A stretch of DNA of 64,000 bases from Escherichia phage AV126, in sequence record OR352956.1; one strand, written 5' to 3'. Positions 25,073 through 59,815 of this stretch are shown here, in pieces. Numbering within the stretch: position 1 is the stretch's first letter; each line of letters starts with the position of its first letter. The position numbers were made by a program, and so were the translations under genes. The notes under the pieces were generated by a model that made no database searches, was not told the origin of the DNA, and saw only the letters and a list, made by a program, of their open reading frames with translations.

Positions 25073-25171
25073 ATGGAATCTCAACTCAGTCAACCTAAGC
25101 AGGTTATCAACGTCAAAGTGAACAAGCAGAGTATCGCTCATGATTTAAAAAGTAATGAGAACGCACTATGA
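25073..25171 (+). CDS. small hypothetical protein (32 aa)
   Basis: ATG 7 nt after AGGAG SD; stop overlaps next start (ATGA). Confidence 0.3.
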   Translation: MESQLSQPKQVINVKVNKQSIAHDLKSNENAL

Positions 25172-25410
25172 GAAAATTTTTAATAGGTATGTTCTGTACA
25201 TATCCTGATAATAAAGTCAGTTCTACTAAAGTCTGGAACGCTGTAGGCATGTCGGTTATGACAGGCATGTTTATCTTTTTAGGAATAGAAAAAGAAATTC
25301 CTGAATGGATGGGTTGGGCTTTTGTTTTCATGATAACCCCTTCTCGCCTCATGAAAAATCTTATTGATTTACGTTGGGGCAGATCACAATCTACCAAAGA
25401 GGATGACTAA
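25168..25410 (+). CDS. small membrane protein, holin-like topology
   Basis: 80 aa; two hydrophobic segments (VWNAVGMSVMTGMFIFLGI; WMGWAFVFMITP) and charged C-terminus (RWGRSQSTKEDD). Confidence 0.3.
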   Translation: MRKFLIGMFCTYPDNKVSSTKVWNAVGMSVMTGMFIFLGIEKEIPEWMGWAFVFMITPSRLMKNLIDLRWGRSQSTKEDD

Positions 25411-39977: not shown

Positions 39978-42900
39978 TCAATGACAGGATGCCCAGGAAT
40001 TACCCACGTCATATCCGGCAGTAAGCTGAACATTAAGATTGTAAAATTCTCCAGCCTTAGTAACAGCTAAAGCAGCAAGTTCACCTGCCCGACTATAGGC
40101 TGTAAACCATCCACCTTTGGGAGATTCATGAATGTTAGCCCAAATTTGCCCTGTCTCTTTTTCCTTATTATGCTTCCATTCTTCAACTTTAGCAAGGCAT
40201 TCTTTATCAATTTTCTTTTGTTCTTCAGGATCGTCTACTTTCTTCCAACCTAATGATTCAGGTGAAAACCATTTAAATTCTACAAGGCTACGAGAAACTT
40301 CAAGCTGGGCTTCATCGTGATATGCAATCATTTGTTGCACGAAGTCTTTATTCTTCCAGTCATCTTTAAAGAAGTCAACACTTAGCCCTTCTTCTTCGAT
40401 CATGTCGTCATAAATAACCATTGCACGTTTAGCACAGATAACCCCACCACTTTGGAACAGAGAGTTAAGAATCGCGTGAGCAGAACGAGTAGGAACCTTA
40501 CGACCGTCAATACCCAAAACATACTGTTTACCAGTCTTAACCCAGAAATCGTTTAAACGTTCTTTAAGACGCGCCAGTGGGAATGCAGCTTCCCAGAAAG
40601 CATCGAACACCAGTTGCCCTGTGTATTTATCGCTACCAATTGTTTTAGCAACCTTGTCTGCTTGAGCGCCGTACGTGCAGTTACCTGTCAACGTGATAAA
40701 ACCATTCTGACGCATAACAAAAGATTCATTCTTGGTTGAGATACAGAATACATCTGTTACTCGTGAAAAAGCTTTTGTCAACCTCTGTCCTGAAATAGTT
40801 TGTCCGTTATTGATTGCCAACGTTAACATGCCATCTTTTTGAACAGAACCATACGCAATATTACCTGTCATATTGATAGCCAAAGAAACAGCGTCGCTAA
40901 TCTTACCTTTCTTTTGACGGATAACAAGACTGCCGTTTGGACGCTTATGACCATCTGCCATCCAGAATGCCTCTAAGAATGCTTCCAACACAGCTTGACC
41001 TTGATTAGCAATTAATGTAGACCAGTCCACTTCGTGCTTATTTTGACCCACTTCAACGCCACATTTAGTCAAAAATTCCCTAAACTGACTCTTATTAGGA
41101 CGTAATGAATGCATCGTTCCAGATACATACTCGTCAAATGTGAAGATATCTCCCACAGCCTCACGTGCTTCTTCTAAGAATTTTTTCTCATCTTGATCTA
41201 CCGTGACTGTAATACCCATTACTTTATTTCTGGCTTTGCTAGACCACTTATAGTAGCCATCCGAAAGAAGCCAGCCTAAGAAACGACCTTCTTCCACTGT
41301 TAGAGTAGACACCACACCAGATCGCCCTGCTGCAATTATGTTTGACTCCGAGTTTAAATCCTCTGTAGATCTACGCTCCACTTGCATATACTTAACATTG
41401 TTACCATCTGATCGCATAGTTTTTCTCTGTGCGTTAATCCACATATGATCGTTAGTAACTTCTACTTTGAACCACTTGTTACCGAGAGAGACAACTTCTG
41501 CATCGTTATAGTCCCACAGCTTAAGAATAGGGGTATATTCGTAAAGAGCGGTGTGAGTATTATAAGATAAAACTTCATCCCCTACAAAAAGATCTTTACG
41601 TTTCTTCCAACCCGTTCTTGTTAACACTTCCGTATTATCTACAGGTACACAACCGTATTTAACGCTCTTAGCAGGACCACGTTCAAACTTACGTCCAATA
41701 ATATCAGTAATATGTTTTGCCATCATAGTATGCACATCGTTTGGTTTTTCTAACAGAAGTGCATTACAGTAAGCATGATCAGGATTATCATATCTCCACG
41801 TATAATGCGACTCAATCTTCGCCTCTAATGAATCAAAGTCATAACCAATCTGGAAGTATTTAGGAACCTCTACACCAAACAGGTTACGCATCTGCCATCC
41901 AAACAAAGAGGTAACACGAGGAATATTGGCTACAGACCTATGCTTCATACGAGAGGTTGCTGCATCGCATGTAGCCGCTGGCGTAGGTATACGTCCATCT
42001 GCACGAACTGCTGCCAAGAAACCTTTGTTGTATTCTTGATCTTCTTCGTCTTCTTCCCAATCAGCACCGCCACCTAAAATAGAGTTCCTACGATGCTTAT
42101 ACGTTAAGTATTCTACAATCTGTGTAGCATAAGGAAACTTCTCACCCAAAGCTTGCAGGTTAGGACAAATTTCTTTTTCCTGACCTTTGGTAAAACATGG
42201 GTTAGTCAATACTTTAAGACCGCGACCTTTACCTTTTGCTATACGCTCTTGAATCTTCCTTTCCAAGGTTTCCGGTGTGCACTCCAGATGATCACAACGG
42301 TCCTGACAAAAATTAGAAGATAGAGTTTGCTCAACGTAAGCTCGAATACCTTTCTGAAGTTCTTCCTCACTCTTTTTAATCTTGGTGCCAGATTTAAGAG
42401 TCAAATCTTTATCTTTATATTCCGATGGTACCCAACCTAATCCTACAAGCCAGTTTTTAATATGGGTTGTATCGTTTAATGTTGCAGGGATGTGAGGATC
42501 ACATAAAGGCTCATCTGCTGCAACTGGCAGTTTCCACTCTTTCCCCAACATAACTAACCACCAATCTCCATCCCTCTCTTCCAAATGACCATCATGTTTC
42601 TTAGCAAAATTGATCATATGGTTAGTTGGCTCTAAGTTCTTTTTAATTTGCAACTTAGGTGGAATAAAAGCCTTAAGATAGCCTTTTGTTGCTGGTTTAG
42701 GTGGCAAAATAGGCTCAACGAGTAAACGAAGACGCTCCATTTCTGCATCCAAAAAAGCAAGGTTCTCTTCTGCTTGCTTCATGTTAAAAGCAAACCCACG
42801 GTGTTCCTGGCGCGTGATAATGTCTGCTACACGTTGTTCAAGTTCAAATGGACCTTCCCATTTATCATAATCCCCCCATTCTTCCATGAGGTAATTATAT

Positions 42901-43547
42901 ACACTTGTGTTGGCTTTGTTATCATAGATACAGTAATAAAGCATATCCGCAGCAAAAGTCTTAAATCGATCTTCTTCTGGAATCTCTTTACGGAAATCTA
43001 TTTTTACATCCCCACCTGCCTTTCGAGAAAGTGCTGCCAAACTATGTCCTGATTTGCCCTCAATCTTTCGATCTGGGTTTAACACTTTACTCAAAATCAA
43101 GGAGTCAATAAGTTTTACCTTATTTTTGCCCCACGTATTATATTTAACACTGTAATCTAATCCATAAAACAGTTTTGTAGCCAACCAGTCGTAGTTGATA
43201 CCGTTGTGAGCCACAGCCATTTCAACCAGATATTCAGGCTTGTCTTTAAAATAACCTTCATGATTAATAAAGTCTGGGAAATCTTTTAGTTGAAAATGCG
43301 TGTAATCTTGCGCCACATACTCTTTAAGAACATATGTGTATTTACCATCTGACTCTTCATAAGGACGCCCATCAAAGATGTATTTAGGGCCATCGTGGAA
43401 AGCTACTATTTCTCCTGTTTCATGGTTCTCTAAGACAATACAGTGCATTTGAAATGTGTCTTTGAGACGATAAGGACTAGCTAAATAATCAATAGTGTCA
43501 TTATTCAACAATCCGTTTGCTTCAATATCCCATGTAAACTTACTCAC
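39978..43547 (-). CDS. family A DNA polymerase with 3'-5' exonuclease domain, interrupted by an intein
   Basis: 1189 aa; exo motif WDIEANGL; motif A-like DFDSLEAK; motif B split (RGPAKSVKYG / CTYGAQADKVA) by 324 aa insert. Confidence 0.85.
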   Translation of the reverse strand: MSKFTWDIEANGLLNNDTIDYLASPYRLKDTFQMHCIVLENHETGEIVAFHDGPKYIFDGRPYEESDGKYTYVLKEYVAQDYTHFQLKDFPDFINHEGYFKDKPEYLVEMAVAHNGINYDWLATKLFYGLDYSVKYNTWGKNKVKLIDSLILSKVLNPDRKIEGKSGHSLAALSRKAGGDVKIDFRKEIPEEDRFKTFAADMLYYCIYDNKANTSVYNYLMEEWGDYDKWEGPFELEQRVADIITRQEHRGFAFNMKQAEENLAFLDAEMERLRLLVEPILPPKPATKGYLKAFIPPKLQIKKNLEPTNHMINFAKKHDGHLEERDGDWWLVMLGKEWKLPVAADEPLCDPHIPATLNDTTHIKNWLVGLGWVPSEYKDKDLTLKSGTKIKKSEEELQKGIRAYVEQTLSSNFCQDRCDHLECTPETLERKIQERIAKGKGRGLKVLTNPCFTKGQEKEICPNLQALGEKFPYATQIVEYLTYKHRRNSILGGGADWEEDEEDQEYNKGFLAAVRADGRIPTPAATCDAATSRMKHRSVANIPRVTSLFGWQMRNLFGVEVPKYFQIGYDFDSLEAKIESHYTWRYDNPDHAYCNALLLEKPNDVHTMMAKHITDIIGRKFERGPAKSVKYGCVPVDNTEVLTRTGWKKRKDLFVGDEVLSYNTHTALYEYTPILKLWDYNDAEVVSLGNKWFKVEVTNDHMWINAQRKTMRSDGNNVKYMQVERRSTEDLNSESNIIAAGRSGVVSTLTVEEGRFLGWLLSDGYYKWSSKARNKVMGITVTVDQDEKKFLEEAREAVGDIFTFDEYVSGTMHSLRPNKSQFREFLTKCGVEVGQNKHEVDWSTLIANQGQAVLEAFLEAFWMADGHKRPNGSLVIRQKKGKISDAVSLAINMTGNIAYGSVQKDGMLTLAINNGQTISGQRLTKAFSRVTDVFCISTKNESFVMRQNGFITLTGNCTYGAQADKVAKTIGSDKYTGQLVFDAFWEAAFPLARLKERLNDFWVKTGKQYVLGIDGRKVPTRSAHAILNSLFQSGGVICAKRAMVIYDDMIEEEGLSVDFFKDDWKNKDFVQQMIAYHDEAQLEVSRSLVEFKWFSPESLGWKKVDDPEEQKKIDKECLAKVEEWKHNKEKETGQIWANIHESPKGGWFTAYSRAGELAALAVTKAGEFYNLNVQLTAGYDVGNSWASCH
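40680..41651 (-). mobile_element. intein with double-LAGLIDADG-type homing endonuclease in polymerase motif B
   Basis: Insert begins CVPVDNTEVLTRTGW, has TNDHMWI block B-like motif and FLGWLLSDGYY / FLEAFWMADGHK, ends FITLTGN before Cys +1; in frame, 972 nt. Confidence 0.7.
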
Positions 43548-44847: not shown

Positions 44848-44876
44848 GTATTTTTAATAAAAGGGCCGAAGCCCTT
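44848..44876 (-). terminator. intrinsic terminator after primase-helicase gene
   Basis: On - strand AAGGGC-UUCG-GCCCUU followed by UUAUUAAAAAU; overlaps stop codon. Confidence 0.6.
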
Positions 44877-46665: not shown

Positions 46666-46944
46666 TTAAAATGGTTCGTTAGTCTCCATCATATATTCTG
46701 CTTCTAGTTCTTCCATGTGCTTTCTAAATTGGAAAGCAATTTCTGCTACAGTTACATTTAAATCTTTTTCAAAAACTTCTGTAGATCCTTCATAAAAACG
46801 AATACCGTCAATTAAAAGCCCTCCGTGGTAATCCCAATCGCTTTCACGAGAAAGTGGATTAGGTTCTTCATAATAGTAATCCACCTCCACGACCAAGGCT
46901 TTCCCGTTACGAGCGGTGTATTCAAAATCAAAAGTGTTAATCAT
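46666..46944 (-). CDS. hypothetical acidic protein
   Basis: 92 aa, Glu/Asp/Tyr-rich. Confidence 0.45.
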   Translation of the reverse strand: MINTFDFEYTARNGKALVVEVDYYYEEPNPLSRESDWDYHGGLLIDGIRFYEGSTEVFEKDLNVTVAEIAFQFRKHMEELEAEYMMETNEPF

Positions 46945-50296: not shown

Positions 50297-50552
50297 TTAC
50301 AACCTCCTTAATAGCTACTGCACAGTTCTTACAAATACATTGACCTTTGTTCTTAGAAATTTCAATGTAAGGTTCATTTTCGTTTTCTCTGCGTCGTGAA
50401 TCGTATATTACAGTATTGAAGCAGACAACGCAAATGTTTTTAATAACGACATATTTTTGCACTTTTTGCTTAGTGCGAAAATTGACTTCAATGACTTCTC
50501 CCATCAGTGAATCTCCCCTAAAATGTTGTTTTGAGACATTACTGCGGAGCAT
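50274..50552 (-). CDS. small Cys-rich (zinc-ribbon-like) protein
   Basis: 92 aa; CVVC...CICKNC. Confidence 0.4.
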   Translation of the reverse strand: MLRSNVSKQHFRGDSLMGEVIEVNFRTKQKVQKYVVIKNICVVCFNTVIYDSRRRENENEPYIEISKNKGQCICKNCAVAIKEVVNENAWDQ

Positions 50553-50788
50553 TCTACAGCATCATGAGTCCTTGCAAAACGCTCCCACAGCACAGCATCT
50601 ACTTTAAGAACCATACAAGGATAAATACTGTCGTTGATCATATCAATGCTATATTTATCTACATCCTTTTCATCTTCCATAAACAAAGTAGCGTATGCTT
50701 CCAAATGTTTACGGGTGTAGTATACGTCCTCTTCGGTAAGACCGACAACCAGGTAACTTGCTACAACAACAGTATTATCTTCTTGCAT
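50504..50788 (-). CDS. hypothetical protein
   Basis: 94 aa from ATG at 50788 (GGGGAG SD); ORF-track start 50851 overlaps upstream gene. Confidence 0.4.
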   Translation of the reverse strand: MQEDNTVVVASYLVVGLTEEDVYYTRKHLEAYATLFMEDEKDVDKYSIDMINDSIYPCMVLKVDAVLWERFARTHDAVECSAVMSQNNILGEIH

Positions 50789-50789
50789 T

Positions 50790-51311
50790 TTAACTCCCCT
50801 TTGGTAGATAGAAACCATGCACTTTATCTCGATAAACAAGACGCATATCACGCTCCCAGTGTGTCCTTATATTCCGTTTCTTGAAGTATAGAGCACCTTT
50901 AGTAACATCTAAAACAGACCGCAATTCAGGAAAATGTTTCTCTAAATAAAGTAAACGTTCCGCTATTGCTTTTGCTTCCTGCCACTTATCTTTTTCTGTT
51001 ACGTTAAAAGTTTTCGCATATGAGAATTGCCCTTTCTGGAACAAGACTCCTCTGACTGTGTTAGGGAAGTATGTATCATTTCTTCTGTTGATTACTACAT
51101 TCCCAACGGCATTCATTCCTTTTTTACCCAGACCTCGACCTTCTGCGTAAATTGCACAAGCTAATAGAATTTTATCATTATATTGCTTTGTACATTTGTG
51201 AACTACTTTAGCAGTTTTTACGTTTGCAGCTTCGGCTTTCGCCACAACAGGTGTAAATGTAAAAGCAGTTAAGGATAGTAACGCAACTGTTACAAAGTTT
51301 TTTATCAGCAA
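50790..51311 (-). CDS. secreted cell wall hydrolase, SleB/CwlJ family (putative signal-peptide endolysin)
   Basis: 173 aa; TTG start after AAAGGAGG SD; signal peptide (MLIKNFVTVALLSLTAFTFTPVVAKA); VGNVVINRRNDTYFPNTVRGVLFQKGQFS matches family core. Confidence 0.7.
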   Translation of the reverse strand: MLIKNFVTVALLSLTAFTFTPVVAKAEAANVKTAKVVHKCTKQYNDKILLACAIYAEGRGLGKKGMNAVGNVVINRRNDTYFPNTVRGVLFQKGQFSYAKTFNVTEKDKWQEAKAIAERLLYLEKHFPELRSVLDVTKGALYFKKRNIRTHWERDMRLVYRDKVHGFYLPKGS

Positions 51312-51343
51312 ATTTTGCCTCCTTTTTAAGTTAACGAACTTCT

Positions 51344-51372
51344 AGTATAACACGATAGAGGCTTTATTGCAA
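51344..51372 (-). promoter_or_regulatory. sigma70-like promoter (- strand), TTGCAA-N17-TATACT
   Basis: -35 at 51372-51367, -10 at 51349-51344; directly after G-rich hairpin 51373-51392. Confidence 0.45.
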
Positions 51373-51392
51373 GAGGGGGATTTCTCCCCCTC
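51373..51392 (-). other. G/C-rich hairpin between TerD-like gene and hydrolase promoter
   Basis: GAGGGGGA-tttc-TCCCCCTC 8 bp stem; no U-tract; similar to palindrome at 32558-32578. Confidence 0.4.
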
Positions 51393-51410: not shown

Positions 51411-52013
51411 TTATGGACATTCATACCATTCTTTTTTACCACCGAAGGCCATCACCACATCGCAAATATCCAGACCAGCTTTACCTACACCATATGCTTT
51501 CAGTTTCCATTCCCCATCTTCACGAACCAAGGAAGCCACGTGGCAGATTGTGTTGCCAGCTACTTCAGGAGCTAGGAAGTCAAAATCCAGAATTTCCACA
51601 TTGCGCTCGGAGTCGAAGATTTTAAGCATACCTTCAGAAGCATGACCAAAACGTTTCAGACCTGTATCATCATCAATGGTCAGAACAAAGGCAATCTCTT
51701 GTGCATCAGGAGAGATTTTAGCCAGAGTAATATCAATCTGCTCCATGCTGCCAGTCCCATCACGAACATCGTCACCAGCGAAGGTAGAACGTTCAGGATC
51801 AAACTTGTTAGCATAGCAAACCAGATGACGTGCAGACAGCATTTCAGGATTGCCAGCGGCATTGTGACGACAAACCAGTGCACTTACATCCAGATCCAGT
51901 TTAGAATCAGATTTCCAAGAGAATTCCAGGCGCAGTTCTTTCAGAGCCGGAGCAACTTTCTTCAGGGAAATTTTTTCGCTAGAGCCTTTTTTCAGGGAAA
52001 TTTTATCATTCAT
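51411..52013 (-). CDS. terD: TerD-domain protein
   Basis: 200 aa; N-terminal duplicated motif MNDKISLKKGSSEKISLKK parallels the start of bacterial TerD; GDDVRDGTGS resembles TerD Ca-binding motif. Confidence 0.75.
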   Translation of the reverse strand: MNDKISLKKGSSEKISLKKVAPALKELRLEFSWKSDSKLDLDVSALVCRHNAAGNPEMLSARHLVCYANKFDPERSTFAGDDVRDGTGSMEQIDITLAKISPDAQEIAFVLTIDDDTGLKRFGHASEGMLKIFDSERNVEILDFDFLAPEVAGNTICHVASLVREDGEWKLKAYGVGKAGLDICDVVMAFGGKKEWYECP

Positions 52014-52028
52014 CTTTTGTCTCCTCTA

Positions 52029-52298
52029 TTATTTAAGTGTAATACCAGTTACAGTCAATTCTACTTCCAAAAGCTTAGATGTGTTTTGGATTGCTACTAA
52101 TTGTGCATGATGGTTTAGTTCTACAGCAGAATAATCATTTTCCCCATCATCTACTTTTAAATAAACAATAACTTCACTAAGGTCTAAACCATTTTCGTCA
52201 AATGCATTTTCATAGACGAAAGTATCTCCTACATCCAAATCTTTAATGGTAAGGCATCGTTTATTTACTTTTTGCTCATCAATTTCGAAGTTTAACAC
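52029..52298 (-). CDS. small hypothetical protein (paralog B of 53320-53598)
   Basis: 89 aa; shares DL.VGDTF.Y..A.DE.GLD and C-terminal VELTVTGITLK with paralog A. Confidence 0.5.
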   Translation of the reverse strand: MLNFEIDEQKVNKRCLTIKDLDVGDTFVYENAFDENGLDLSEVIVYLKVDDGENDYSAVELNHHAQLVAIQNTSKLLEVELTVTGITLK

Positions 52299-52527
52299 TT
52301 CTTCCTCCTAATGTTATCTCCGGTTTGTATATACGAAGAATTATAGCATTTTCATTTTCTTTGTCAACCCATTCTTCATAATCGGGCCATACATGAATCT
52401 CTACTCTACTTACAATATTTTCCATCCGCACAGTCCCAATGAAATATTCTTTGAGACTGCGCATAATGAAAGCTTCTCTCTCGCGCCAATAATTTTCTAC
52501 GACTTGAGAGGCAAGCTCGTCGATCAT
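52279..52527 (-). CDS. hypothetical protein
   Basis: 82 aa; start overlaps vWA gene stop. Confidence 0.4.
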   Translation of the reverse strand: MIDELASQVVENYWREREAFIMRSLKEYFIGTVRMENIVSRVEIHVWPDYEEWVDKENENAIILRIYKPEITLGGRSVKLRN

Positions 52528-53318
52528 TTTTTAGCACCTACCTTAACAACCCACTCTCCGAACTCTTCAGATAAGAGTTTGTCATAAAGCTCTGAATCTG
52601 TCAAGTCTAAATCTTTAATGCCAATAAAACCAACATTGTCATAAGCATTTGCCAGTTCTTTCAGGAAGCTGAACTTCTCATTACCAACGCCAACCATGAA
52701 CCAATAGATAGGCTTATTCTTATTCTCTTCAATAAGACGACGAACAGCACTAGGATCACCATTCTCACCATCTGTCTGGAAGAATACAACACCAGGAGTA
52801 ACGTCAGCACCTGGTTCAGATACAGCTACAACTTTTTCACGCTCTACAGATACTGTTTCAGTTTTACCCAGCAGACGATTAAAGAAGCCTTTCTTTGGAG
52901 CCTCCTCTTGTACCACTTGTTTAGTGGTAACATATTTGGTAACAGTGCCAAAATACTCATCGTAGATATCTGCCATTACAGGGGCGTAATTTGTTCCACC
53001 TCCGATACGAACATTACGCATACATTTACCAACATAGTCATCGTAAACGTCTGCTGTTGCTGGAGTAAGCTCTTGAGAACTCGTATTGAAGGCCCACATG
53101 TCAATTTGTTCATTATCGTCGAACAGCATACCAAAAGGAAGCAGTTTGCCTACAAAATCACTCACTACCCCACGAGTATATAGACCATGCATACTACCAG
53201 AAATATCTAGAGCACATGCTACACGAAGAACAATCTTACCTTCATTCAGGTTCTTATTCTTTTTCAGAGAGAAAGCAAGGTTTTCTTGACGTTTTTTCAG
53301 GCTGATTTTCTCGGACAT
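52524..53318 (-). CDS. von Willebrand factor A domain protein (TerY-like)
   Basis: 264 aa; MIDAS motif DISGSM; N-terminus MSEKISLKK shares the EKISLKK motif with the TerD-like protein. Confidence 0.7.
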   Translation of the reverse strand: MSEKISLKKRQENLAFSLKKNKNLNEGKIVLRVACALDISGSMHGLYTRGVVSDFVGKLLPFGMLFDDNEQIDMWAFNTSSQELTPATADVYDDYVGKCMRNVRIGGGTNYAPVMADIYDEYFGTVTKYVTTKQVVQEEAPKKGFFNRLLGKTETVSVEREKVVAVSEPGADVTPGVVFFQTDGENGDPSAVRRLIEENKNKPIYWFMVGVGNEKFSFLKELANAYDNVGFIGIKDLDLTDSELYDKLLSEEFGEWVVKVGAKK

Positions 53319-53319
53319 A

Positions 53320-53598
53320 TTATTTCTCCTTCTTAAGTGTAATATTGGTAACTTCTAAATCTACTTCCACCATATTTGTATCTGGTGGGATGCAATGAGT
53401 ATAGCCTCGTTGTGCTAGTGATCCATTAATACAGATCGCACTGTTTGTGGAATTTTTAATGAACACCAAGTTACGGTAGGTATCCAACCCTGCGTCTTCA
53501 TAGGCATCATAATACATGAATGTGTCCCCTATGCCAAGGTCTTCGAAAGCAATAGGTAAATCCTGACACTTTTCTTCTTGAATATTGAATCTAAACAC
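53320..53598 (-). CDS. small hypothetical protein (paralog A of 52029-52298)
   Basis: GTG at 53598 after GAGGAGG SD gives 92 aa aligning end-to-end with paralog B; ORF-track start 53664 overlaps upstream gene. Confidence 0.45.
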   Translation of the reverse strand: MFRFNIQEEKCQDLPIAFEDLGIGDTFMYYDAYEDAGLDTYRNLVFIKNSTNSAICINGSLAQRGYTHCIPPDTNMVEVDLEVTNITLKKEK

Positions 53599-54154
53599 GC
53601 ATACCTCCTCTACCAATTTTGAAGCCCAAATCGTAAGCTTCCTTAGTGATCTTTTGTAACTCACTTATAGGAAGTGTTACAAGAGGATCATCTTCTTCAA
53701 TTTCCATCTTGTCATCTTCTGTTTCAATGAGAGTATTATGCACTTTGTGATAAGGGTTGTCAACACGTTTAAACTTATTCTTTTCTGTGCTGAAAAAACA
53801 ATCTGGATCTTCTTCACCATCACCCCAACCTTGGTTAGGATCTCCGTCAGATTGTTCTGTAGGGATTTCACCTGTAAAATACTCTTCCAGCACCATAGCG
53901 ATACCGTCCCTTGGATTCGAGGAATGCATTAAATCACAAACCTTACCCCAATCCATAGCCCATTCGAACCGTTCACGAACGCCATTTTCATTCTCCTTTC
54001 CAGAGAAAACACAACCATAACTATCATAGTTGCCATACATCTCTTCAATAACAACACCATCCTTCAAAAGAAAGAGATAGCAAGGTGATCCGTCGAAAGA
54101 AGTAGAAAGGGCAGCTTTGCCCGATTCCTTACACAAAAAGCTAAAACAACCCAT
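53591..54154 (-). CDS. hypothetical protein
   Basis: 187 aa, Cys-containing N-terminus, acidic C-terminal half. Confidence 0.45.
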   Translation of the reverse strand: MGCFSFLCKESGKAALSTSFDGSPCYLFLLKDGVVIEEMYGNYDSYGCVFSGKENENGVRERFEWAMDWGKVCDLMHSSNPRDGIAMVLEEYFTGEIPTEQSDGDPNQGWGDGEEDPDCFFSTEKNKFKRVDNPYHKVHNTLIETEDDKMEIEEDDPLVTLPISELQKITKEAYDLGFKIGRGGMRV

Positions 54155-54351
54155 TACAAACCCTCCTTCAGATTATCAAGAGCTACAGTGGTTTCACAAA
54201 ATTCTCCATATGCTTTATGATGTTCTAGAAAAGCTTCAGGTCCACCCCAATCATTATCGTGTGTATTCCAACCATCAATAAAAGCATCTTCAATGATTGT
54301 GATCAGTTCCTGTCGAGTCAACGTAATGGTATCAGGTTTTGGATTATGCAT
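54154..54351 (-). CDS. hypothetical protein
   Basis: 65 aa; start overlaps upstream stop. Confidence 0.4.
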   Translation of the reverse strand: MHNPKPDTITLTRQELITIIEDAFIDGWNTHDNDWGGPEAFLEHHKAYGEFCETTVALDNLKEGL

Positions 54352-54517
54352 CTTCTTTCTCCTCTAAAATATGAAACCCATAGCTACAATAGTCCTGAAA
54401 GGTTTCGTGTGCAAGATCTTCTATATCCTCTTGAGACATATCATCTTCAATTTCGATATCCACAACCTCATTGCATCCACACCAAGCAGTTTCAATATTC
54501 ACTCGTAAAGTTTTCAT
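54344..54517 (-). CDS. small hypothetical acidic protein (57 aa)
   Basis: Below ORF-track cut-off; ATGA overlap with upstream gene; MKTLRVNIETAWCGCNEVVD... Confidence 0.3.
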   Translation of the reverse strand: MKTLRVNIETAWCGCNEVVDIEIEDDMSQEDIEDLAHETFQDYCSYGFHILEEKEDA

Positions 54518-54720
54518 TCTTCTTCCTCATTAAATTCCACATCAGAAATAACTTTAAATCTACCAAAGTTACGACAACCTTCATAGATATATCCATCACG
54601 ACAAGCTGCAAAAATATCTGGAGTTTGTAGCTGGGTCATTGGGGCAAAGCGTTTCTCTTCGTCATAACGAACACCTATTTCTCCAGCTTGTTCGTCAAGC
54701 ATGTATACACGGATTCTCAT
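54514..54720 (-). CDS. hypothetical protein
   Basis: 68 aa; ends EEEE; coupled to neighbours. Confidence 0.4.
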   Translation of the reverse strand: MRIRVYMLDEQAGEIGVRYDEEKRFAPMTQLQTPDIFAACRDGYIYEGCRNFGRFKVISDVEFNEEEE

Positions 54721-55829
54721 TTACCCAACCCCTTCTTAACAGCGTCAACCATCCCATCTTCGAGAGATTGAACTTCATTGATGTAATCAACACGGGCAGC
54801 ACGGGCTTCCGTATTGATGCGGTTAGTTTCTTCCAACATTTTAACCAAGTTTTCCTGATCGTGACGCAGAGTTTCAATATCCAACACTTGACGGTTAGCC
54901 AGTGCTGCTGCTTCGATCTGATTCTGTGTGGCAAGATCGCTACCCAGTTTAATTGCCAGGTTAAATTCATCAAGAACGTTATTCTGTGTCTCTGCGGCTT
55001 TCATTTGACGTAAGCTTTCAATATACATTGAGAAGTTAGCAGAGTAAGCAGGAATAACATTATTTACTATGTTACGCGCAGATCGCATTAAGCTTGCAGA
55101 AACTTTTTGCATACCTTGCACACGTGGTCCCATTTGGACACACAGTAGGCGCAATGCTTTTAAATCCGCAATACGAATCTCCAGAAGATCCAAGGTATCT
55201 CGGATCGCTTGTCGCTGTTCTACCGCATCTTCTGGAAGAGCAGCCAAAGCTTGTTCTTCTTTTTCATAGGTCGCTGTTAGAAGCTGCATATCTCGGTTCA
55301 AACTTGCAGCATATTGTCCAATAGCTTGATGTAGCTTTTCAAGGTATACCAAAGAATCTTCTTCTTTGCGAATATCCATTTGAAGGTTCTTTACCAACTC
55401 TTCAATACGGTTATTAACATTATCAAACTCCCCAAACAGGTCTTCTTTCATACCCATAACTTTTTTAATGAGTTTAGTAATACCCTTGCTTTGTTTAATA
55501 GAGTTTGGATCAAGTTGTTTTGCCTGTTTAATCAAAGCTGTGAGTCGTTCACTCATCTGATCGCCTTGATTACTACGTTGATGTTTTAATACCTCAGCAT
55601 TCAAGGAACGCAAGGTTGTTCCTGCCTCTGCCCCAATCTCTTCGATCTCTTGTCGGGTCATAGAAGGCAAAACTGGAACTTCTTGCGGTGCCGCTGGTGC
55701 ATAAACAGGACTGGCATCTAACACGCTTGGAGCGAATACAGATTTACTTGCATCTGTTGTTGCAGCGAATACACTCATTTCAGACTTCTTCTGACCACCA
55801 GTAGCTGCTTTTAAAAATGGACTTGTCAT
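54717..55829 (-). CDS. TelA-like helical protein
   Basis: 370 aa, Ala/Pro-rich N-terminus then long helical/coiled-coil body; assignment by size, composition and Ter context only. Confidence 0.35.
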   Translation of the reverse strand: MTSPFLKAATGGQKKSEMSVFAATTDASKSVFAPSVLDASPVYAPAAPQEVPVLPSMTRQEIEEIGAEAGTTLRSLNAEVLKHQRSNQGDQMSERLTALIKQAKQLDPNSIKQSKGITKLIKKVMGMKEDLFGEFDNVNNRIEELVKNLQMDIRKEEDSLVYLEKLHQAIGQYAASLNRDMQLLTATYEKEEQALAALPEDAVEQRQAIRDTLDLLEIRIADLKALRLLCVQMGPRVQGMQKVSASLMRSARNIVNNVIPAYSANFSMYIESLRQMKAAETQNNVLDEFNLAIKLGSDLATQNQIEAAALANRQVLDIETLRHDQENLVKMLEETNRINTEARAARVDYINEVQSLEDGMVDAVKKGLGK

Positions 55830-56416
55830 TCTTCATTCTCCTCTTCTGCATCTCTTATATATGGTGAAACACCGTACTCTTTAGCTACTTTAACCCAATC
55901 ATCCCATTTATATAACCATAATTTTCCTTCAGTTCCTTCTTTATCTGATTTCAACCACATGTTAGGTTGCTTGCCTGGGTACATGCGATTAGGTTTACGA
56001 TTATAACCTCTAACACATCTTGTCGCAAACCTATCTACCAGAACAAGAACATATTTATATTCGTGGTTCAACGGCTCTTTGGAAGTGGCTTTAGGATTAG
56101 CCCCTAATTCTGCTGCCAGTTTTTGCCAATGAGCACCGTGCCTACTAAACTTACCCATACAACCATCAATAGCATGAGCAATTTCGTGCTTCATTGTATC
56201 CACGATCATATCTCTTGTGGAGTTCTTATGCAAGTGCCAATTTACAACAACAATTTTATCTCGGTAGTTGCACCAACCGAAAGAGTTATTCACTTTGTTT
56301 CTAACACAAGCTTTATATCCTGCTTCACGTAACATGTTGTAGTAAACAGGAAAATCTTCTTTTATTTCCTGCATCACTTCCCACCACAAGAGTTGCAAGT
56401 CTCTCTCGGTATGCAT
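55826..56416 (-). CDS. putative zinc metallopeptidase (SprT-like HExxH)
   Basis: 196 aa; MKHEIAHAIDGCMGKFSRHGAHW has HExxH plus downstream His. Confidence 0.4.
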   Translation of the reverse strand: MHTERDLQLLWWEVMQEIKEDFPVYYNMLREAGYKACVRNKVNNSFGWCNYRDKIVVVNWHLHKNSTRDMIVDTMKHEIAHAIDGCMGKFSRHGAHWQKLAAELGANPKATSKEPLNHEYKYVLVLVDRFATRCVRGYNRKPNRMYPGKQPNMWLKSDKEGTEGKLWLYKWDDWVKVAKEYGVSPYIRDAEEENEE

Positions 56417-56419
56417 AAC

Positions 56420-57013
56420 TTACACCTTAAAAGCGAAATGCGTGGTCGTGGCTTCAAAATCAGGGCCAGATAAACTTGCACTGAAATCTGAAATATTTGT
56501 AATTAAAAAGCTTTTATGCATACCTAACACAGCCACGCTTTCAATATCTTCTACTAACATTTCAATCATGTTAGAAACATGGCTGAACGTATAGTTTTGT
56601 TTTTTGATGGTGTAGAAAGAAAGACTCCCACCTGCTGTATAAGATACCTCTTCAAAATCTTTAATCGTATATTGTGTGCCATCAGTAAAGAAAATGGTAG
56701 CTTTATTAGTAGCACGTTTCTTGTTTTTTGGTCCTTTTTTACGTTTACTGCGAGTAGGCAAACCGTTTGGAAATACCGTAGCTACAAATTCTTCAGGAGA
56801 AACCTCCTTACCGAAATCATAACCGTAAGAAACAGCGTCTATAAACTCGTCGTCTTCATTTTTAAAATAATGAAAATAGGGCCAATTTGAGAGATTATCG
56901 AGCATCTTATGCTCATCCACAGCAGAGAACGTATCCCTCAAAGCACGTGTGATTTGCAAAGCATTAGGCAAACTTTTAACACCTGTAATGGAAGTACGAA
57001 TAGAAATTGTCAT
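56420..57013 (-). CDS. hypothetical protein with basic patch
   Basis: 197 aa; TRSKRKKGPKNKKRATNK. Confidence 0.45.
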   Translation of the reverse strand: MTISIRTSITGVKSLPNALQITRALRDTFSAVDEHKMLDNLSNWPYFHYFKNEDDEFIDAVSYGYDFGKEVSPEEFVATVFPNGLPTRSKRKKGPKNKKRATNKATIFFTDGTQYTIKDFEEVSYTAGGSLSFYTIKKQNYTFSHVSNMIEMLVEDIESVAVLGMHKSFLITNISDFSASLSGPDFEATTTHFAFKV

Positions 57014-57027
57014 TGTTTTTCTCCTTA

Positions 57028-57465
57028 TTAACGTCGCTTGCTACGAGATGAACTCTTTTTACTTAAAGGGCTATTGTAAGATTTACGAGTTGTATAGCTA
57101 CTATTTGTTTTAAAAGTTTGTCTCGGCTTTTCATAAGTTTTTATCTCTTGTTTAGGCTTACCATAAAAATTAGTTTTCGGCTTAGGTGTATTATAATGCT
57201 TATTAATAATCGTTCTGTTATCGTTATAATCTCCACTGCTACGATTACTACCGCCACTCATCATATGCCCTAACAACATACCTGTAGCAAACTCACCAAC
57301 ACCGCTACTACTAGAACCGCCACCATTGTTGATAATAGTTGTATCTCCGTCAGATCCTTGTTGAGCGTATTGTTGAGGAGGTTGTTGGTATTGTGCAGGA
57401 TTTGTTTCATCCTCGCAAGCTGTTAAAAAGATACAACCAATTAAAATCAGGGCTAGTTTTTTCAT
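57028..57465 (-). CDS. putative lipoprotein
   Basis: Start MKKLALILIGCIFLTAC: signal peptide with lipobox LTAC; Gln/Gly/Ser-rich then basic C-terminus; ORF-track N-terminal extension rejected. Confidence 0.55.
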   Translation of the reverse strand: MKKLALILIGCIFLTACEDETNPAQYQQPPQQYAQQGSDGDTTIINNGGGSSSSGVGEFATGMLLGHMMSGGSNRSSGDYNDNRTIINKHYNTPKPKTNFYGKPKQEIKTYEKPRQTFKTNSSYTTRKSYNSPLSKKSSSRSKRR

Positions 57466-57652
57466 ATTTGCTTTCCTCGTTTTGGCTATTAATACATCTG
57501 TGTTTGAAATCTCCAGAGAAGCAATAAAGTTGCTCTCCATCTCGGTATAAACTCACTTTACTGCCGTTGATTACGCTTGTCAATACAAAAATTACAACAA
57601 ACAACCCTATTGCAAAACAGATATTTTCAAACACAACCAACAAGTATTTCAT
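57407..57652 (-). CDS. small membrane protein
   Basis: 81 aa; N-terminal TM (ICFAIGLFVVIFVLTSVI); 3' end overlaps lipoprotein start in another frame, so one of the two starts may be wrong. Confidence 0.35.
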   Translation of the reverse strand: MKYLLVVFENICFAIGLFVVIFVLTSVINGSKVSLYRDGEQLYCFSGDFKHRCINSQNEESKYEKTSPDFNWLYLFNSLRG

Positions 57653-57999
57653 TTTAAAAATACCTCATCATCAGTTTCATTATCCCAGAAGAACAAATCC
57701 CAACCATTTGGATCGTTCCATTTGGCTGCTGGAGAAGTCCATATTTGTTCGATATCAATATTCAAAACTTCACCGTTTCGTTTTGAAACAGCTTTAGTTA
57801 ATTCCCAACGAGATACAGGCTCTACTTCTCCTGAACCACTTCCACAACAAGCTACAACATTAGGAGGCAAATTAATTGGATCTTTGGTCACAATCATAAC
57901 GCTTACCCCAGGGTAAACTTTTGAAAGATAGTCTGAAATGTAATCCACATCACCAGATAAATCCCAAACAAGTTCTTGAATTTCATCAAAATTATTCAT
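57649..57999 (-). CDS. hypothetical protein
   Basis: 116 aa acidic/Trp-rich; AGGAG SD. Confidence 0.45.
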   Translation of the reverse strand: MNNFDEIQELVWDLSGDVDYISDYLSKVYPGVSVMIVTKDPINLPPNVVACCGSGSGEVEPVSRWELTKAVSKRNGEVLNIDIEQIWTSPAAKWNDPNGWDLFFWDNETDDEVFLK

Positions 58000-58041
58000 A
58001 AGTCTCTCCTATAAAATAGCCTCCCGAAGGAGGCTCATCTA

Positions 58042-59016
58042 TTAAACAGCAGCTTCTTCTTTTTCAGGGAAGATAAAGCTTGCAATAACACCAAGAGCTA
58101 ATGTGCCTAGAACAATCATCAGACTTACGTTAGGGGAAATATCATGCGGGAGGAATGACCATTTGGCATGAAGTGTTTCACCGAACGGGTGATACATAAG
58201 TTTAGCACCAACAAACACCAGAACCACAGCAACAGCTTTCTCTAAGTGAACCAGATATTTCACAGCTACACTTAACACAAAGAAAAGTGCACGTAAACCA
58301 AGAACAGCCATCAGCATTGCAGAATAAACTAGCAGAGGTTCTTGTGTCACCCCGATCACAGCCGGAACTGAATCAAAAGAGAAGACAATATCTGTAAGCT
58401 CAATAACAAACACACAAAGAAGAGCAGGAGTTGCATATTTAATACCATTCTTAATGGTAATGAACTTTTCACCATCCAGTGCATTGTGCACAGGCAGAAC
58501 TTTACCTACTAAACGAACAGCCCAATGCTTAGAGTAATCAATATCCTCTTCTTCGTCACCACCTTTGATGATAGCCACGGCAGACCAGGCTACAATCAAA
58601 CCGAACAACACTTGGACCGACCAATGAAGGTTAAACAAAGCGGTGCCTGCTGCAACAAAAATACCTCGGAAGACAATGGCTCCTGCAATCCCCCAAAGTA
58701 AAATCTTATGTTGGAGATGTGTGCTCTTAATTCCAAAGCTTGCAAAAATTGCCATGAACACCATCAGGTTATCTACAGAAAGACTCTTTTCCAACACATA
58801 ACCACTTAGGAAAAGCGCGGCAAACTCTTTACCATGTTCTACCCAAATGAATGCGTAATATCCTAAAGCTAAAGCAATCCAAAAAACAGACCAAAGCAAA
58901 GCAGATTTAATTCCAATTTCTTTATTCTCTTTATGACCAAAGAAATCGATACCAATAGACAATGCCAAAATACCAACTAAAACAACTACATCAATAATTG
59001 GGAAACCGAGTTGCAT
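58042..59016 (-). CDS. terC: TerC-family integral membrane protein
   Basis: 324 aa, multiple TM segments; EKSLSVDNLMVF and FSFDSVPAVIGVT match the two TerC signature repeats. Confidence 0.75.
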   Translation of the reverse strand: MQLGFPIIDVVVLVGILALSIGIDFFGHKENKEIGIKSALLWSVFWIALALGYYAFIWVEHGKEFAALFLSGYVLEKSLSVDNLMVFMAIFASFGIKSTHLQHKILLWGIAGAIVFRGIFVAAGTALFNLHWSVQVLFGLIVAWSAVAIIKGGDEEEDIDYSKHWAVRLVGKVLPVHNALDGEKFITIKNGIKYATPALLCVFVIELTDIVFSFDSVPAVIGVTQEPLLVYSAMLMAVLGLRALFFVLSVAVKYLVHLEKAVAVVLVFVGAKLMYHPFGETLHAKWSFLPHDISPNVSLMIVLGTLALGVIASFIFPEKEEAAV

Positions 59017-59095: not shown

Positions 59096-59317
59096 TTATT
59101 TTGTTGAATGAGAGGAAAAGATTCCTCGTAATACAGCCAGAATAAACGAAACACAAACCACGGTCCAGAAGGTTACTGGGACAGTGATATCTGCATGACC
59201 CATAACTTCAGCAACATAGTTGTAAGCCAGCAACAGTAACCAAGCTGGAATCAAACTAAGCATAAAAGCAATAACAAAAAAGCTTACCACTGCAACAATA
59301 CCTGCAAAAACACCCAT
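59096..59317 (-). CDS. small membrane protein
   Basis: 73 aa, two hydrophobic helices. Confidence 0.45.
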   Translation of the reverse strand: MGVFAGIVAVVSFFVIAFMLSLIPAWLLLLAYNYVAEVMGHADITVPVTFWTVVCVSFILAVLRGIFSSHSTK

Positions 59318-59329
59318 ACTAATCTCCTC

Positions 59330-59815
59330 TTAAAGTTTATAAATAGTCACATCGTGACCAGCTTTTACTAAAGTTTCTTTGATCATGACTTCAATGATAG
59401 CCCAATTACCTCCAGCATGACCTGCACCTATCATAGGTAGACCAATCTTATGTGCTGGCTGATCTCCTTTATCGTAATTGTGTAAGTCCATTGCCATAGC
59501 TGCAAGAGCATCATACAGCGCATCATAATCTAGTTGACGACCTTTACTATTGTATCCATAACGATACTGTCCATAAAGGTTGTATACCATAGGGTTAGGA
59601 TAATCTTCTGGTTCCCCTAAACTAAAAGAACCAAGCTTTTTCTGGTTTCCTGCTCCTGTAGCTAAATCTGCTTCGTATGCATATGGAAACGCATATTTTA
59701 TTTGTGGGGCAATGCCTGCCCCCATATTACACATACAGTTGCAACAATGAGCAATAACAGTTACTTCACCTGCTTTAGCGGCATCAATAAGATTACCTGT
59801 TTTCATTTTAAGCAT
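59330..59815 (-). CDS. macro-like domain protein (ADP-ribose binding/processing fold)
   Basis: ATG at 59815 after AGGAG SD; VTVIAHCCNCMCNMGAGIAPQI and KIGLPMIGAGHAGGNW align with macro motifs but with substitutions; 161 aa. Confidence 0.45.
   Translation of the reverse strand: MLKMKTGNLIDAAKAGEVTVIAHCCNCMCNMGAGIAPQIKYAFPYAYEADLATGAGNQKKLGSFSLGEPEDYPNPMVYNLYGQYRYGYNSKGRQLDYDALYDALAAMAMDLHNYDKGDQPAHKIGLPMIGAGHAGGNWAIIEVMIKETLVKAGHDVTIYKL

Follow-up and report, generated by a model that had tools for sequence, protein, structure and literature searches.

A SleB-like cell wall hydrolase with a predicted signal peptide in Escherichia phage AV126 and its possible accessory role beside a T4-type lysozyme

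We analyzed a stretch of 64,000 nucleotides (nt) from Escherichia phage AV126 (sequence record OR352956.1), henceforth referred to as the window, and focused on a minus-strand gene at positions 50790-51311 whose product we refer to as the SleB-like protein. Our comparisons suggest that this protein is an accessory muralytic enzyme that is exported by the Sec pathway, cleaved, and kept at a low dose in the periplasm, where it would assist a T4-type lysozyme and spanins; we put the probability of this reading at approximately 0.55. The gene and its parts are as follows.

Positions 50790-51311, minus strand: coding sequence of 173 amino acids (aa), corresponding to exactly one open reading frame (ORF) in the ORF list; predicted exported SleB/CwlJ-type (Hydrolase_2) muralytic enzyme.
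Positions 51309-51311 and 50790-50792, minus strand: TTG start codon and TAA stop codon of this gene.
Positions 51228-51311, minus strand: predicted Sec signal peptide, residues 1-28, from rule-based analysis and 18 homologues.
Positions 51141-51143, minus strand: codon of Glu57, the putative catalytic glutamate in the motif AIYAEGRG, read from the sequence.
Positions 50808-51128, minus strand: Hydrolase_2 catalytic domain, residues 62-168 according to Pfam, with a conserved core from about residue 45.

An initial annotation made from the letters of the window had named a SleB/CwlJ-type cell wall hydrolase at this position, and domain analyses agree with it. The protein matches the Pfam model Hydrolase_2 (PF07486) with a score of 64.1 bits, above the cut-off of 27 (e value 1.9e-17, profile positions 3-100 of 100) and is assigned to phrog_938, which carries the label "endolysin". 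A word-based homologue search gave 18 close relatives and an exhaustive profile search 17,196 representatives (e value of 0.001 or less); relatives of the protein occur in 1094 phage records. The profile of the 18 homologues matched the SleB catalytic domains 4F55/4FET at an e value of about 1e-9. Glu57 is invariant in 18/18 homologues and is aligned with the glutamate of the YGESRGE motif of SleB (4F55/4FET), which we take to be the catalytic residue and on which the assignment of Glu57 is based. An AlphaFold2 model built from the shallow 18-sequence alignment had a mean predicted local distance difference test score of 68.7, with 80-93 in the core and a poor C-terminus, and in a Foldseek search with this medium-quality model the top three matches were SleB 4F55/4FET with a probability of 1.00 but an e value of 0.044 and TM-scores of 0.37-0.49; these were the only meaningful matches, and they are weak. 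Because the score against the NCBIfam SleB equivalog model TIGR02869 is 51.7 bits compared with a cut-off of 236.5, and only residues 37-117 aligned, we regard the protein as one with a predicted SleB catalytic domain that is not a SleB orthologue. The Pfam scan found no PG_binding domain in it. Like SleB, the enzyme is probably a lytic transglycosylase. The predicted mature form has a computed mass of about 17 kDa and is basic (isoelectric point about 9.9), and it contains two cysteines that are invariant in the 18-sequence alignment and adjoin the active site. In the sense of a phage-encoded peptidoglycan-degrading domain, as recognized by Pfam, PHROGs, and GenBank annotation, the protein falls into the functional class of phage endolysins.

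By rule-based analysis only, the N-terminus has the three parts of a signal peptide, that is, a basic n-region with a single lysine (K4), a hydrophobic core of 19 residues (FVTVALLSLTAFTFTPVVA, mean Kyte-Doolittle value 1.9), and small residues at positions -3 and -1. It reads MLIKNFVTVALLSLTAFTFTPVVAKAEA/ANVK, where the slash marks the predicted signal peptidase I site AEA/AN after residue 28; AKA/EA after residue 26 is an alternative site by the same rules. Pro21 near the end of the core is invariant in 18/18 homologues, and a small-x-small motif (AEA here) directly precedes (A/V/K)NVK in all 18, while the stretch from the core to ANVK is variable (VVAKAEA, VYAG-VA, GVAQAKA, VTAYAVA, ENSEA). 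The conserved small-x-small motif before NVK together with the invariant Pro21 is the pattern expected of a signal peptidase I site. The signal peptide of E. coli PhoA (...LLFTPVTKA/R) resembles this N-terminus. Equivalent signal peptides are present in homologues from rV5 (VKIKIFAIILSAFLSLPVVA/AP), a Seunavirus (LKIKALLLATACAFSLTTTPVLA/KE), and a T5-like phage (MKAALLLIAALTYSFNSHA/TY), the PAK_P2 homologue has an uncleavable-looking N-terminal membrane anchor in place of a cleavable signal, and among the 150 nearest family representatives from the profile search 130 have a hydrophobic N-terminus. For CB7_83, the homologue from Pectobacterium phage CB7, a signal peptide has been predicted, and its expression in E. 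coli was toxic (data not shown in that paper; PMC7344957). Our call thus draws on rule-based analysis, conservation among the 18 homologues, and the literature, and the Sec signal peptide proposed in the initial annotation is supported on all three counts. Given a Sec-type signal peptide, holin-independent export is the natural reading of the N-terminus, as that annotation had also proposed. An endolysin with a "cleavable signal peptide" described in a bioRxiv preprint is an unrelated signal-anchor-release (SAR) lysozyme and was set aside as not comparable.

The 10 kb around the SleB-like gene are 97-98.5% identical over their full length to 64 GenBank Phapecoctavirus records, which belong to the Stephanstirmvirinae and represent phAPEC8-like E. 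coli myoviruses of 150 kb, and by blastn the window corresponds to approximately 34.4-97.6 kb of the record of phage tuntematon in reverse orientation. Because the gene is annotated in these relatives as "endolysin", "putative cell wall hydrolase", or "sleB", and proteins that are 100% identical are annotated "endolysin" (e.g., NC_052661.1), the gene itself is already known. Its annotation, a signal peptide reported for a homologue, and the occurrence of two lytic enzymes side by side are likewise on record in databases or literature; in the literature that we searched, we found no description of the conserved TTG start and of the candidate anti-Shine-Dalgarno (anti-SD) block in the promoter spacer that are presented below.

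The initial annotation had gone further and called the SleB-like protein the only recognizable muralytic enzyme and the likely endolysin of a phage with possibly unconventional lysis. The first of these claims stands for the window, in which a Pfam search of 10 tail/baseplate proteins found no muralytic domain and hence no candidate for a tail-associated lysin, and in which the SleB-like protein is probably the only muralytic enzyme. For the genome as a whole it does not appear to stand, and the second claim is not supported by default: the relatives also encode a signal-less lysozyme of the T4 gene e type and an i-/o-spanin pair. The picture of a sole endolysin with unconventional lysis arose because the rest of the genome was not seen in that first reading. 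When we read the whole annotation of phage tuntematon, the second lysis enzyme and the spanins were seen outside the range equivalent to the window. The 166-aa protein gp234 (L003 24983-25483) is a homologue of T4 lysozyme (residues 3-161 aligned, e value about 1e-48) and also matches Pfam Phage_lysozyme; its N-terminus is not hydrophobic and has no signal peptide. Its motifs VDEGL, YQDHLG, and WTVGIG, which we read by eye with no alignment displayed, presumably hold the Glu-Asp-Thr catalytic triad of T4 lysozyme. This lysozyme is present at no less than 99% identity in 60 Phapecoctavirus records and at no less than 95% in 64, and all four best matches to the window carry it at 99% identity or more. 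Its best match in PDB is 7RGR, "Artificial protein L056" (e value 3e-72), whose first approximately 70 residues are identical to it; this designed protein evidently derives from the family of natural lysozymes to which that of tuntematon belongs.

The i-spanin of the relatives is a 130-aa protein with an N-terminal transmembrane (TM) helix and a coiled coil that is encoded immediately upstream of the large terminase, and the o-spanin, with the lipoprotein signal LALPLMMTGC, is encoded by an ORF overlapping that of the i-spanin. The pair lies about 0.6-1 kb past the left edge of the window in the relatives and is conserved in 64 records. In tuntematon, the T4-like lysozyme is about 77 kb and the spanins are about 50 kb from the SleB-like gene. 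The lysis genes of T4 are dispersed in its genome, and by analogy those of the phAPEC8-like relatives are best seen as dispersed rather than missing. Spanins occupy the same position in CB7, rV5, and PVP-SE1 (PMC7344957). Among the small ORFs of tuntematon with TM segments, none of the 9 proteins tested matched a holin PHROG; they belong to PHROGs of unknown function or to a generic "membrane protein" family, and other authors likewise name only holin candidates (PMC12210895, PMC7344957). The initial annotation had advised a search for holin and spanin partners elsewhere and had held that a canonical lysis cassette elsewhere in the genome would count against it; this objection applies in part, since the search yielded the lysozyme and, beside the terminase, the spanins in the relatives, but no holin among the 9 TM proteins tested, and the lysozyme and spanin genes do not form one cassette.

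Two small membrane proteins of the window are recorded here in their own right. One, of 73 aa with two TM segments (positions 59096-59317, minus strand, just upstream of TerC), belongs to phrog_16065 of unknown function and has the topology of class II holins; this phage type has several small membrane proteins of this kind, none of which matches a known holin family. The other, of 80 aa (positions 25168-25410, plus strand), is encoded in the middle of the baseplate/tail-fiber module and corresponds to tuntematon gp136 (phrog_1322, "membrane protein").

The pairing of a SleB-like enzyme with another endolysin recurs in other phages. T5-like phages, whose endolysin and holin are well known, carry a signal-peptide-bearing Hydrolase_2 gene. 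"Two lytic proteins", one with Phage_lysozyme and one with Hydrolase_2, have been described in Phapecoctavirus (PMC10793346), an M15C peptidase with a SleB-like protein in Septuagintavirus (PMC11370258), a T5-like peptidase with a SleB-like protein in the Certrevirus CB7 (PMC7344957), and a SleB-like enzyme with a different main endolysin in BME3/PVP-SE1 (PMC12210895), and PaP1 has the characterized endolysin g072, which was shown to degrade peptidoglycan, in addition to the cell wall hydrolase g029 (PMC3652863). From these sequences, the SleB-like enzyme appears to stay while the "main" endolysin is swapped from genus to genus, which argues for a separate, conserved role.

The second line of evidence comes from the expression signals and the surroundings of the gene, for which the following features are needed.

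Positions 51373-51392, minus strand: G/C hairpin GAGGGGGA-GAAA-TCCCCCTC between the TerD-like gene and the promoter, from sequence and fold.
Positions 51344-51372, minus strand: sigma-70-type promoter from a consensus scan, with the -35 element TTGCAA (51367-51372), a 17-nt spacer, a TG extension, and the -10 element TATACT (51344-51349).
Positions 51357-51362, minus strand: pyrimidine block GCCTCT inside the promoter spacer, a candidate anti-SD sequence complementary to the Shine-Dalgarno (SD) sequence.
Positions 51317-51323, minus strand: SD sequence AGGAGGC, 5 nt before the TTG and invariant in 11 distinct relatives.
Positions 50504-50788, minus strand: downstream gene of 94 aa with its ATG one base after the SleB-like stop codon (phrog_16257, unknown function, no TM segment).
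Positions 44856-44874, minus strand: intrinsic terminator GGGCTTCGGCCC followed by TTTTATT after the primase/helicase gene, from sequence and fold.

The gap of 99 bp between the upstream TerD-like gene and the SleB-like gene, one of the few non-coding gaps, contains in order the G/C hairpin, TTGCAA, the 17-nt spacer ending in TGT, TATACT, a leader of about 20 nt, AGGAGGC, and TTG. The own promoter that the initial annotation had proposed is thus confirmed as a conserved sequence: TTGCAA and TATACT at 51372-51344 with the TGn extension are kept, amid variable adjoining bases, in 11 distinct relatives whose proteins are as little as 56% identical, the -35 element being invariant and the -10 element keeping TAnnnT in relatives at 56-76% protein identity. 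Transcription would start near position 51337. The hairpin stem is kept with changed bases in relatives and, because it has no U-tract, is only a weak terminator or an RNA-end structure. The TTG start is kept in 11/11 sequences of the Stephanstirmvirinae type, and rV5 uses GTG and a Seunavirus TTG. Copies in the Stephanstirmvirinae have their own promoter behind the hairpin, unlike those of rV5 and Seunavirus (Vequintavirinae), where an intrinsic terminator immediately precedes the gene, no promoter lies between the two, and rIIA comes after the gene (L006 2446-2995; L009 1440-3489). Because the TTG start is conserved and the Vequintavirinae gene follows a terminator without a promoter, low expression looks selected. 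The two Vequintavirinae arrangements differ in that rIIA directly follows the SleB-like gene in rV5, and in Seunavirus a 57-aa ORF with two TM segments lies between them and resembles the holin candidate CB7_82 (PMC7344957). In the IMG/VR contigs L017-L022, whose SleB-like proteins are 52-54% identical, a terminator hairpin stands in place of the TTGCAA promoter. It is followed by TTTGCTTTA...TAGAAT, a sequence similar to a T4 MotA-box middle promoter, and the start AGGAGGC-N4-TTG is kept there.

Downstream, the 94-aa gene is probably translationally coupled to the SleB-like gene. None of the three small ORFs that follow the latter has a TM segment, and their PHROGs are of unknown function, so that the statement in the initial annotation that no canonical holin is adjacent proves correct; Certrevirus differs in that a holin candidate with two TM segments lies downstream (PMC7344957), whereas the downstream ORFs of AV126 encode soluble proteins. 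The three small ORFs are followed by four glycosyltransferase genes, a small ORF at 46666-46944, and the primase/helicase gene, all tightly packed, and the minus strand from 50790 to 44875 contains a single weak terminator-like site with a 5-pair stem (45773-45758, inside the primase/helicase gene). The terminator at 44856-44874 is the likely end of the transcription unit from the SleB-like promoter, which by this layout would serve a replication/glycosyltransferase operon and not a lysis unit. With TerD-like, small soluble, glycosyltransferase, and primase/helicase genes as neighbors, we found neither a lysis cassette nor a late-gene placement, and the position as first gene of an operon with glycosyltransferases and a primase/helicase argues against a classical late lysis gene. 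The promoter type gave no temporal class: the window contains 7 matches to the T4 late motif TATAAATA, against 5.1 expected, and 54 sigma-70-like sites overall, against 46 expected, so that neither is enriched.

The spacer of the promoter suggests a further layer of control. The block reads GCCTCT, CCTCCCTCC, or GCTCCTCC in the relatives, with variable flanking spacer positions, and since transcription is predicted to start downstream of it, only read-through RNA from the Ter genes would contain it. Pair counting on the SD/anti-SD helix was set aside, because the MAFFT alignment misplaced the SD in two sequences and the SD is invariant; we used folding of each sequence together with spacer-shuffle controls. 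The block pairs with AGGAGG in the RNAfold minimum-energy structure of 10/11 sequences, and the SD is predicted to be unpaired with a probability of 0.00-0.18 in read-through RNA (9/11 sequences) versus 0.30-0.63 in promoter-initiated RNA, with means of 0.22-0.55 in the spacer-shuffled controls. These predictions give moderate support to the hypothesis that, in read-through transcripts, the spacer block could make the ribosome-binding site inaccessible. A precedent may be T4 gene e, for which McPheeters and colleagues reportedly found in 1986 that early read-through transcripts mask the ribosome-binding site and that transcripts from promoters inside the hairpin are translated. Both genes have an SD-complementary sequence upstream of their own transcription start, so that only read-through RNA could form the masking helix; unlike the T4 late promoter, the promoter of the SleB-like gene is sigma-70-like, and the gate is here predicted from sequence.

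Taken as a working model, the SleB-like protein would be made with a Sec signal peptide and would reach the periplasm of E. coli without any holin, with cleavage by signal peptidase I most likely after Ala28. Placed in the periplasm in advance, the enzyme may nick or turn over the sacculus during infection and would speed the breakdown of the wall once wall synthesis and membrane energization stop. Its amount would be kept low by the weak TTG start, the upstream hairpin, and the anti-SD block, the last of which would silence read-through transcripts so that translation occurs only from transcripts of its own promoter, following the same logic as in T4 gene e.

Several points weigh against this accessory role. 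The activity, export, and cleavage of the SleB-like protein are all predictions; the T4-like lysozyme lies outside the window, and we infer its presence in AV126 from the relatives; and with no holin recognized by homology, the route of the cytoplasmic lysozyme to the wall is only presumed. Sigma-70-like promoters also precede structural genes, so that expression timing cannot be read from promoter type. The anti-SD idea rests on 11 related sequences in which the SD is invariant, which makes two-sided covariation impossible, and predicted masking of the SD is weak in PsgM04F and L023. A study of phages almost identical to the window reports that no signal peptides were detected (PMC10698182); we set this claim aside because other sequence statements in that paper, such as at least 99% identity to the T4 and lambda enzymes, are unreliable. 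Finally, the Hydrolase_2 protein has been called the only endolysin of phapecoctavirus SKA64 (PMC10282059). The SKA64 record does hold a T4-like lysozyme, mislabeled "tyrosine 2,3-aminomutase", a label that fits a weak NCBIfam match of this lysozyme (e value 0.0047), and across phapecoctaviruses it is also found as "baseplate hub + tail lysozyme", "chain A", or "hypothetical" (e.g., OM362897.1 30692-31192); some papers count a single endolysin because of this inconsistent annotation.

The count made for SKA64 is at the same time an argument that the SleB-like protein is the principal endolysin, exported by Sec without a holin and timed by non-canonical means, with the T4-like lysozyme being redundant or having another role. 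This view also draws on the "endolysin" label in RefSeq and PHROGs, on the absence of a recognized holin in the genome (9 small TM proteins tested), on the toxicity of the CB7 homologue in E. coli (PMC7344957), and on the status of the SleB-like gene as the muralytic gene common to all rV5-like and phAPEC8-like genera, the other enzyme being swapped between them (PMC7344957, PMC11370258). We nevertheless consider it unlikely in view of the full-length T4-e-type lysozyme (triad motifs judged by eye) that is kept nearly unchanged across the genus, the predicted co-transcription with primase/helicase and glycosyltransferase genes rather than late or lysis genes, expression signals that are tuned down by the TTG start, and the finding in PaP1 that it is the other enzyme that degrades peptidoglycan (PMC3652863). 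The opposite view, which we hold to be less likely still, is that the protein has no part in lysis and serves auxiliary peptidoglycan remodeling or recycling (wall precursors, cell enlargement, or an envelope change against superinfection) together with the Ter cluster and the glycosyltransferases. The gene does lie between the TerC/TelA/vWA-TerF/TerD cluster and four glycosyltransferase genes and, in rV5 and Seunavirus, near rIIA, its expression is predicted to go with replication genes, and the homologue gp151 of PAK_P3 has been proposed as an auxiliary metabolic gene behind the accumulation of cell-wall precursors, its transcript being present at both time points sampled with a non-significant log2 fold change of 0.62 (PMC4933390, supplement file 6). 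Direct evidence for a non-lytic function is nil, however, and the promoter and hairpin separate the SleB-like gene from the Ter genes; the toxicity reported for CB7_83 demonstrates only a capacity to damage the wall and does not separate this view from an accessory role in lysis.

The least probable of the alternatives in our judgment is that the N-terminal segment is an uncleaved SAR domain that tethers an inactive enzyme until depolarization by a pinholin releases it, as in P1 Lyz or phage 21 R. Such a domain would be compatible with a core that is only moderately hydrophobic (4 Thr, 1 Ser, and 3 Ala among 19 residues) and unusually well conserved, with the two invariant cysteines next to the active site, with the anchor-like N-terminus of the PAK_P2 homologue, and with small two-TM proteins such as that encoded at 59096-59317. 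SAR domains are typically rich in Gly/Ala, remain uncleaved, and abut the catalytic domain, whereas the core of the AV126 protein has 0 Gly and is followed by a conserved AxA site, with the helix-breaking Pro21 at -8 and the small-x-small motif kept in 18/18 homologues and a linker of about 20 residues before the catalytic domain; moreover, there is no adjacent membrane protein or pinholin, and the 9 small TM proteins tested have no holin PHROG match. By these sequence features the segment does not qualify as a SAR domain. We also list on this side the example of T4 RI, which teaches that such calls need experiments (PMC8385771).

The accessory enzyme that we favor resembles several known systems in part. 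Its closest counterparts are the orthologues "cell wall hydrolase SleB" of phAPEC8, Phi92_gp170, rV5 ORF2 "SleB", CB7_83, and CR3_087 of a Cronobacter phage, which belong to the same family and share its size and N-terminal signal peptide; their genes occupy an equivalent place in the early/replication region of rV5-like and phAPEC8-like genomes. With Bacillus SleB/CwlJ it has in common the catalytic domain and the glutamate of the Y-x-E-(A/S/G)-R-G motif. Unlike SleB, it has no N-terminal PG_binding_1 domain and no YpeB partner, its Cys40/Cys52 pair is absent from SleB, and its E. coli host has neither a spore cortex nor muramic-delta-lactam. Lys44 of Oenococcus phage fOg44, which infects a Gram-positive host, is an endolysin with a true signal peptide that is exported without a holin; its gene shares a lysis cassette with a holin gene. 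The AV126 protein is like Lys44 in being a muralytic enzyme with a signal peptide, here predicted, and holin-independent export, and it is unlike Lys44 in its E. coli host, the second, cytoplasmic lysozyme of its relatives, and the location of its gene outside a lysis cassette; the concept of signal-peptide endolysins as such is known (cited in PMC10282059 as reference 58). What it would share with the SAR endolysins P1 Lyz and phage 21 R is Sec-dependent, holin-independent delivery to the periplasm of a Gram-negative host. PAK_P3 gp151, PaP1 g029, and the "putative cell wall hydrolase" of T5-like phages are likewise envelope-targeted Hydrolase_2 proteins that coexist with a separate endolysin, but the Pakpunavirus and T5-like homologues are only 31-38% identical and have ATG starts, and PAK_P2 has a TM anchor instead of a cleavable signal.

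Further observations concern the neighborhood and the window at large. On the minus strand, the region directly upstream of the SleB-like gene (51411-59016) holds a Ter-type stress cluster that comprises TerC (58042-59016), TelA (54717-55829), a vWA-TerF-like gene (52524-53318), and TerD (51411-52013). A protein of about 161 aa encoded at 59330-59815 on the minus strand has a weak match to the Macro (ADP-ribose-binding) domain with an e value of 3e-4, just under the Pfam cut-off. The DNA polymerase ORF (39978-43547, minus strand) contains an in-frame insertion of about 975 bp at 40677-41651 that is absent from tuntematon, giving 1189 aa compared with 865. The insert starts with a cysteine (...KYG/CVPVDNTEVLT...), ends with ...LTGN/C, and contains the LAGLIDADG-like motifs LGWLLSDGYY and FWMADGH; it resembles an intein that contains a homing endonuclease but was not recognized by Pfam.

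A wider formulation, which we advance as a tentative and rather doubtful extension, is that SleB-like proteins are no endolysins in the ordinary meaning of the word and instead form a conserved, throttled, periplasmic peptidoglycan-remodeling factor that would work ahead of lysis in numerous virulent phages infecting Gram-negative hosts (rV5-, phAPEC8-, T5-, and PAK_P1-like), with a gate resembling that of T4 gene e in the Stephanstirmvirinae, where the anti-SD block would silence every read-through transcript. Current concepts of lysis are unchanged unless the accessory role is shown to be other than lysis. For practice, phAPEC8-like phages are widely proposed for therapy against E. coli, and the label "endolysin" sits on the exported SleB-like protein while the T4-type lysozyme is often mislabeled, with at least one paper concluding that there is a single endolysin. 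For the biology of these phages, our analysis raises the questions of why a Sec-exported Hydrolase_2 enzyme has been retained beside a conventional endolysin in at least four lineages of large virulent phages and how the cell survives such an exported enzyme until lysis. Simple handles by which these questions may be tested are the conserved weak start codon, the hairpin or terminator that precedes the gene, and the possible masking of the ribosome-binding site.

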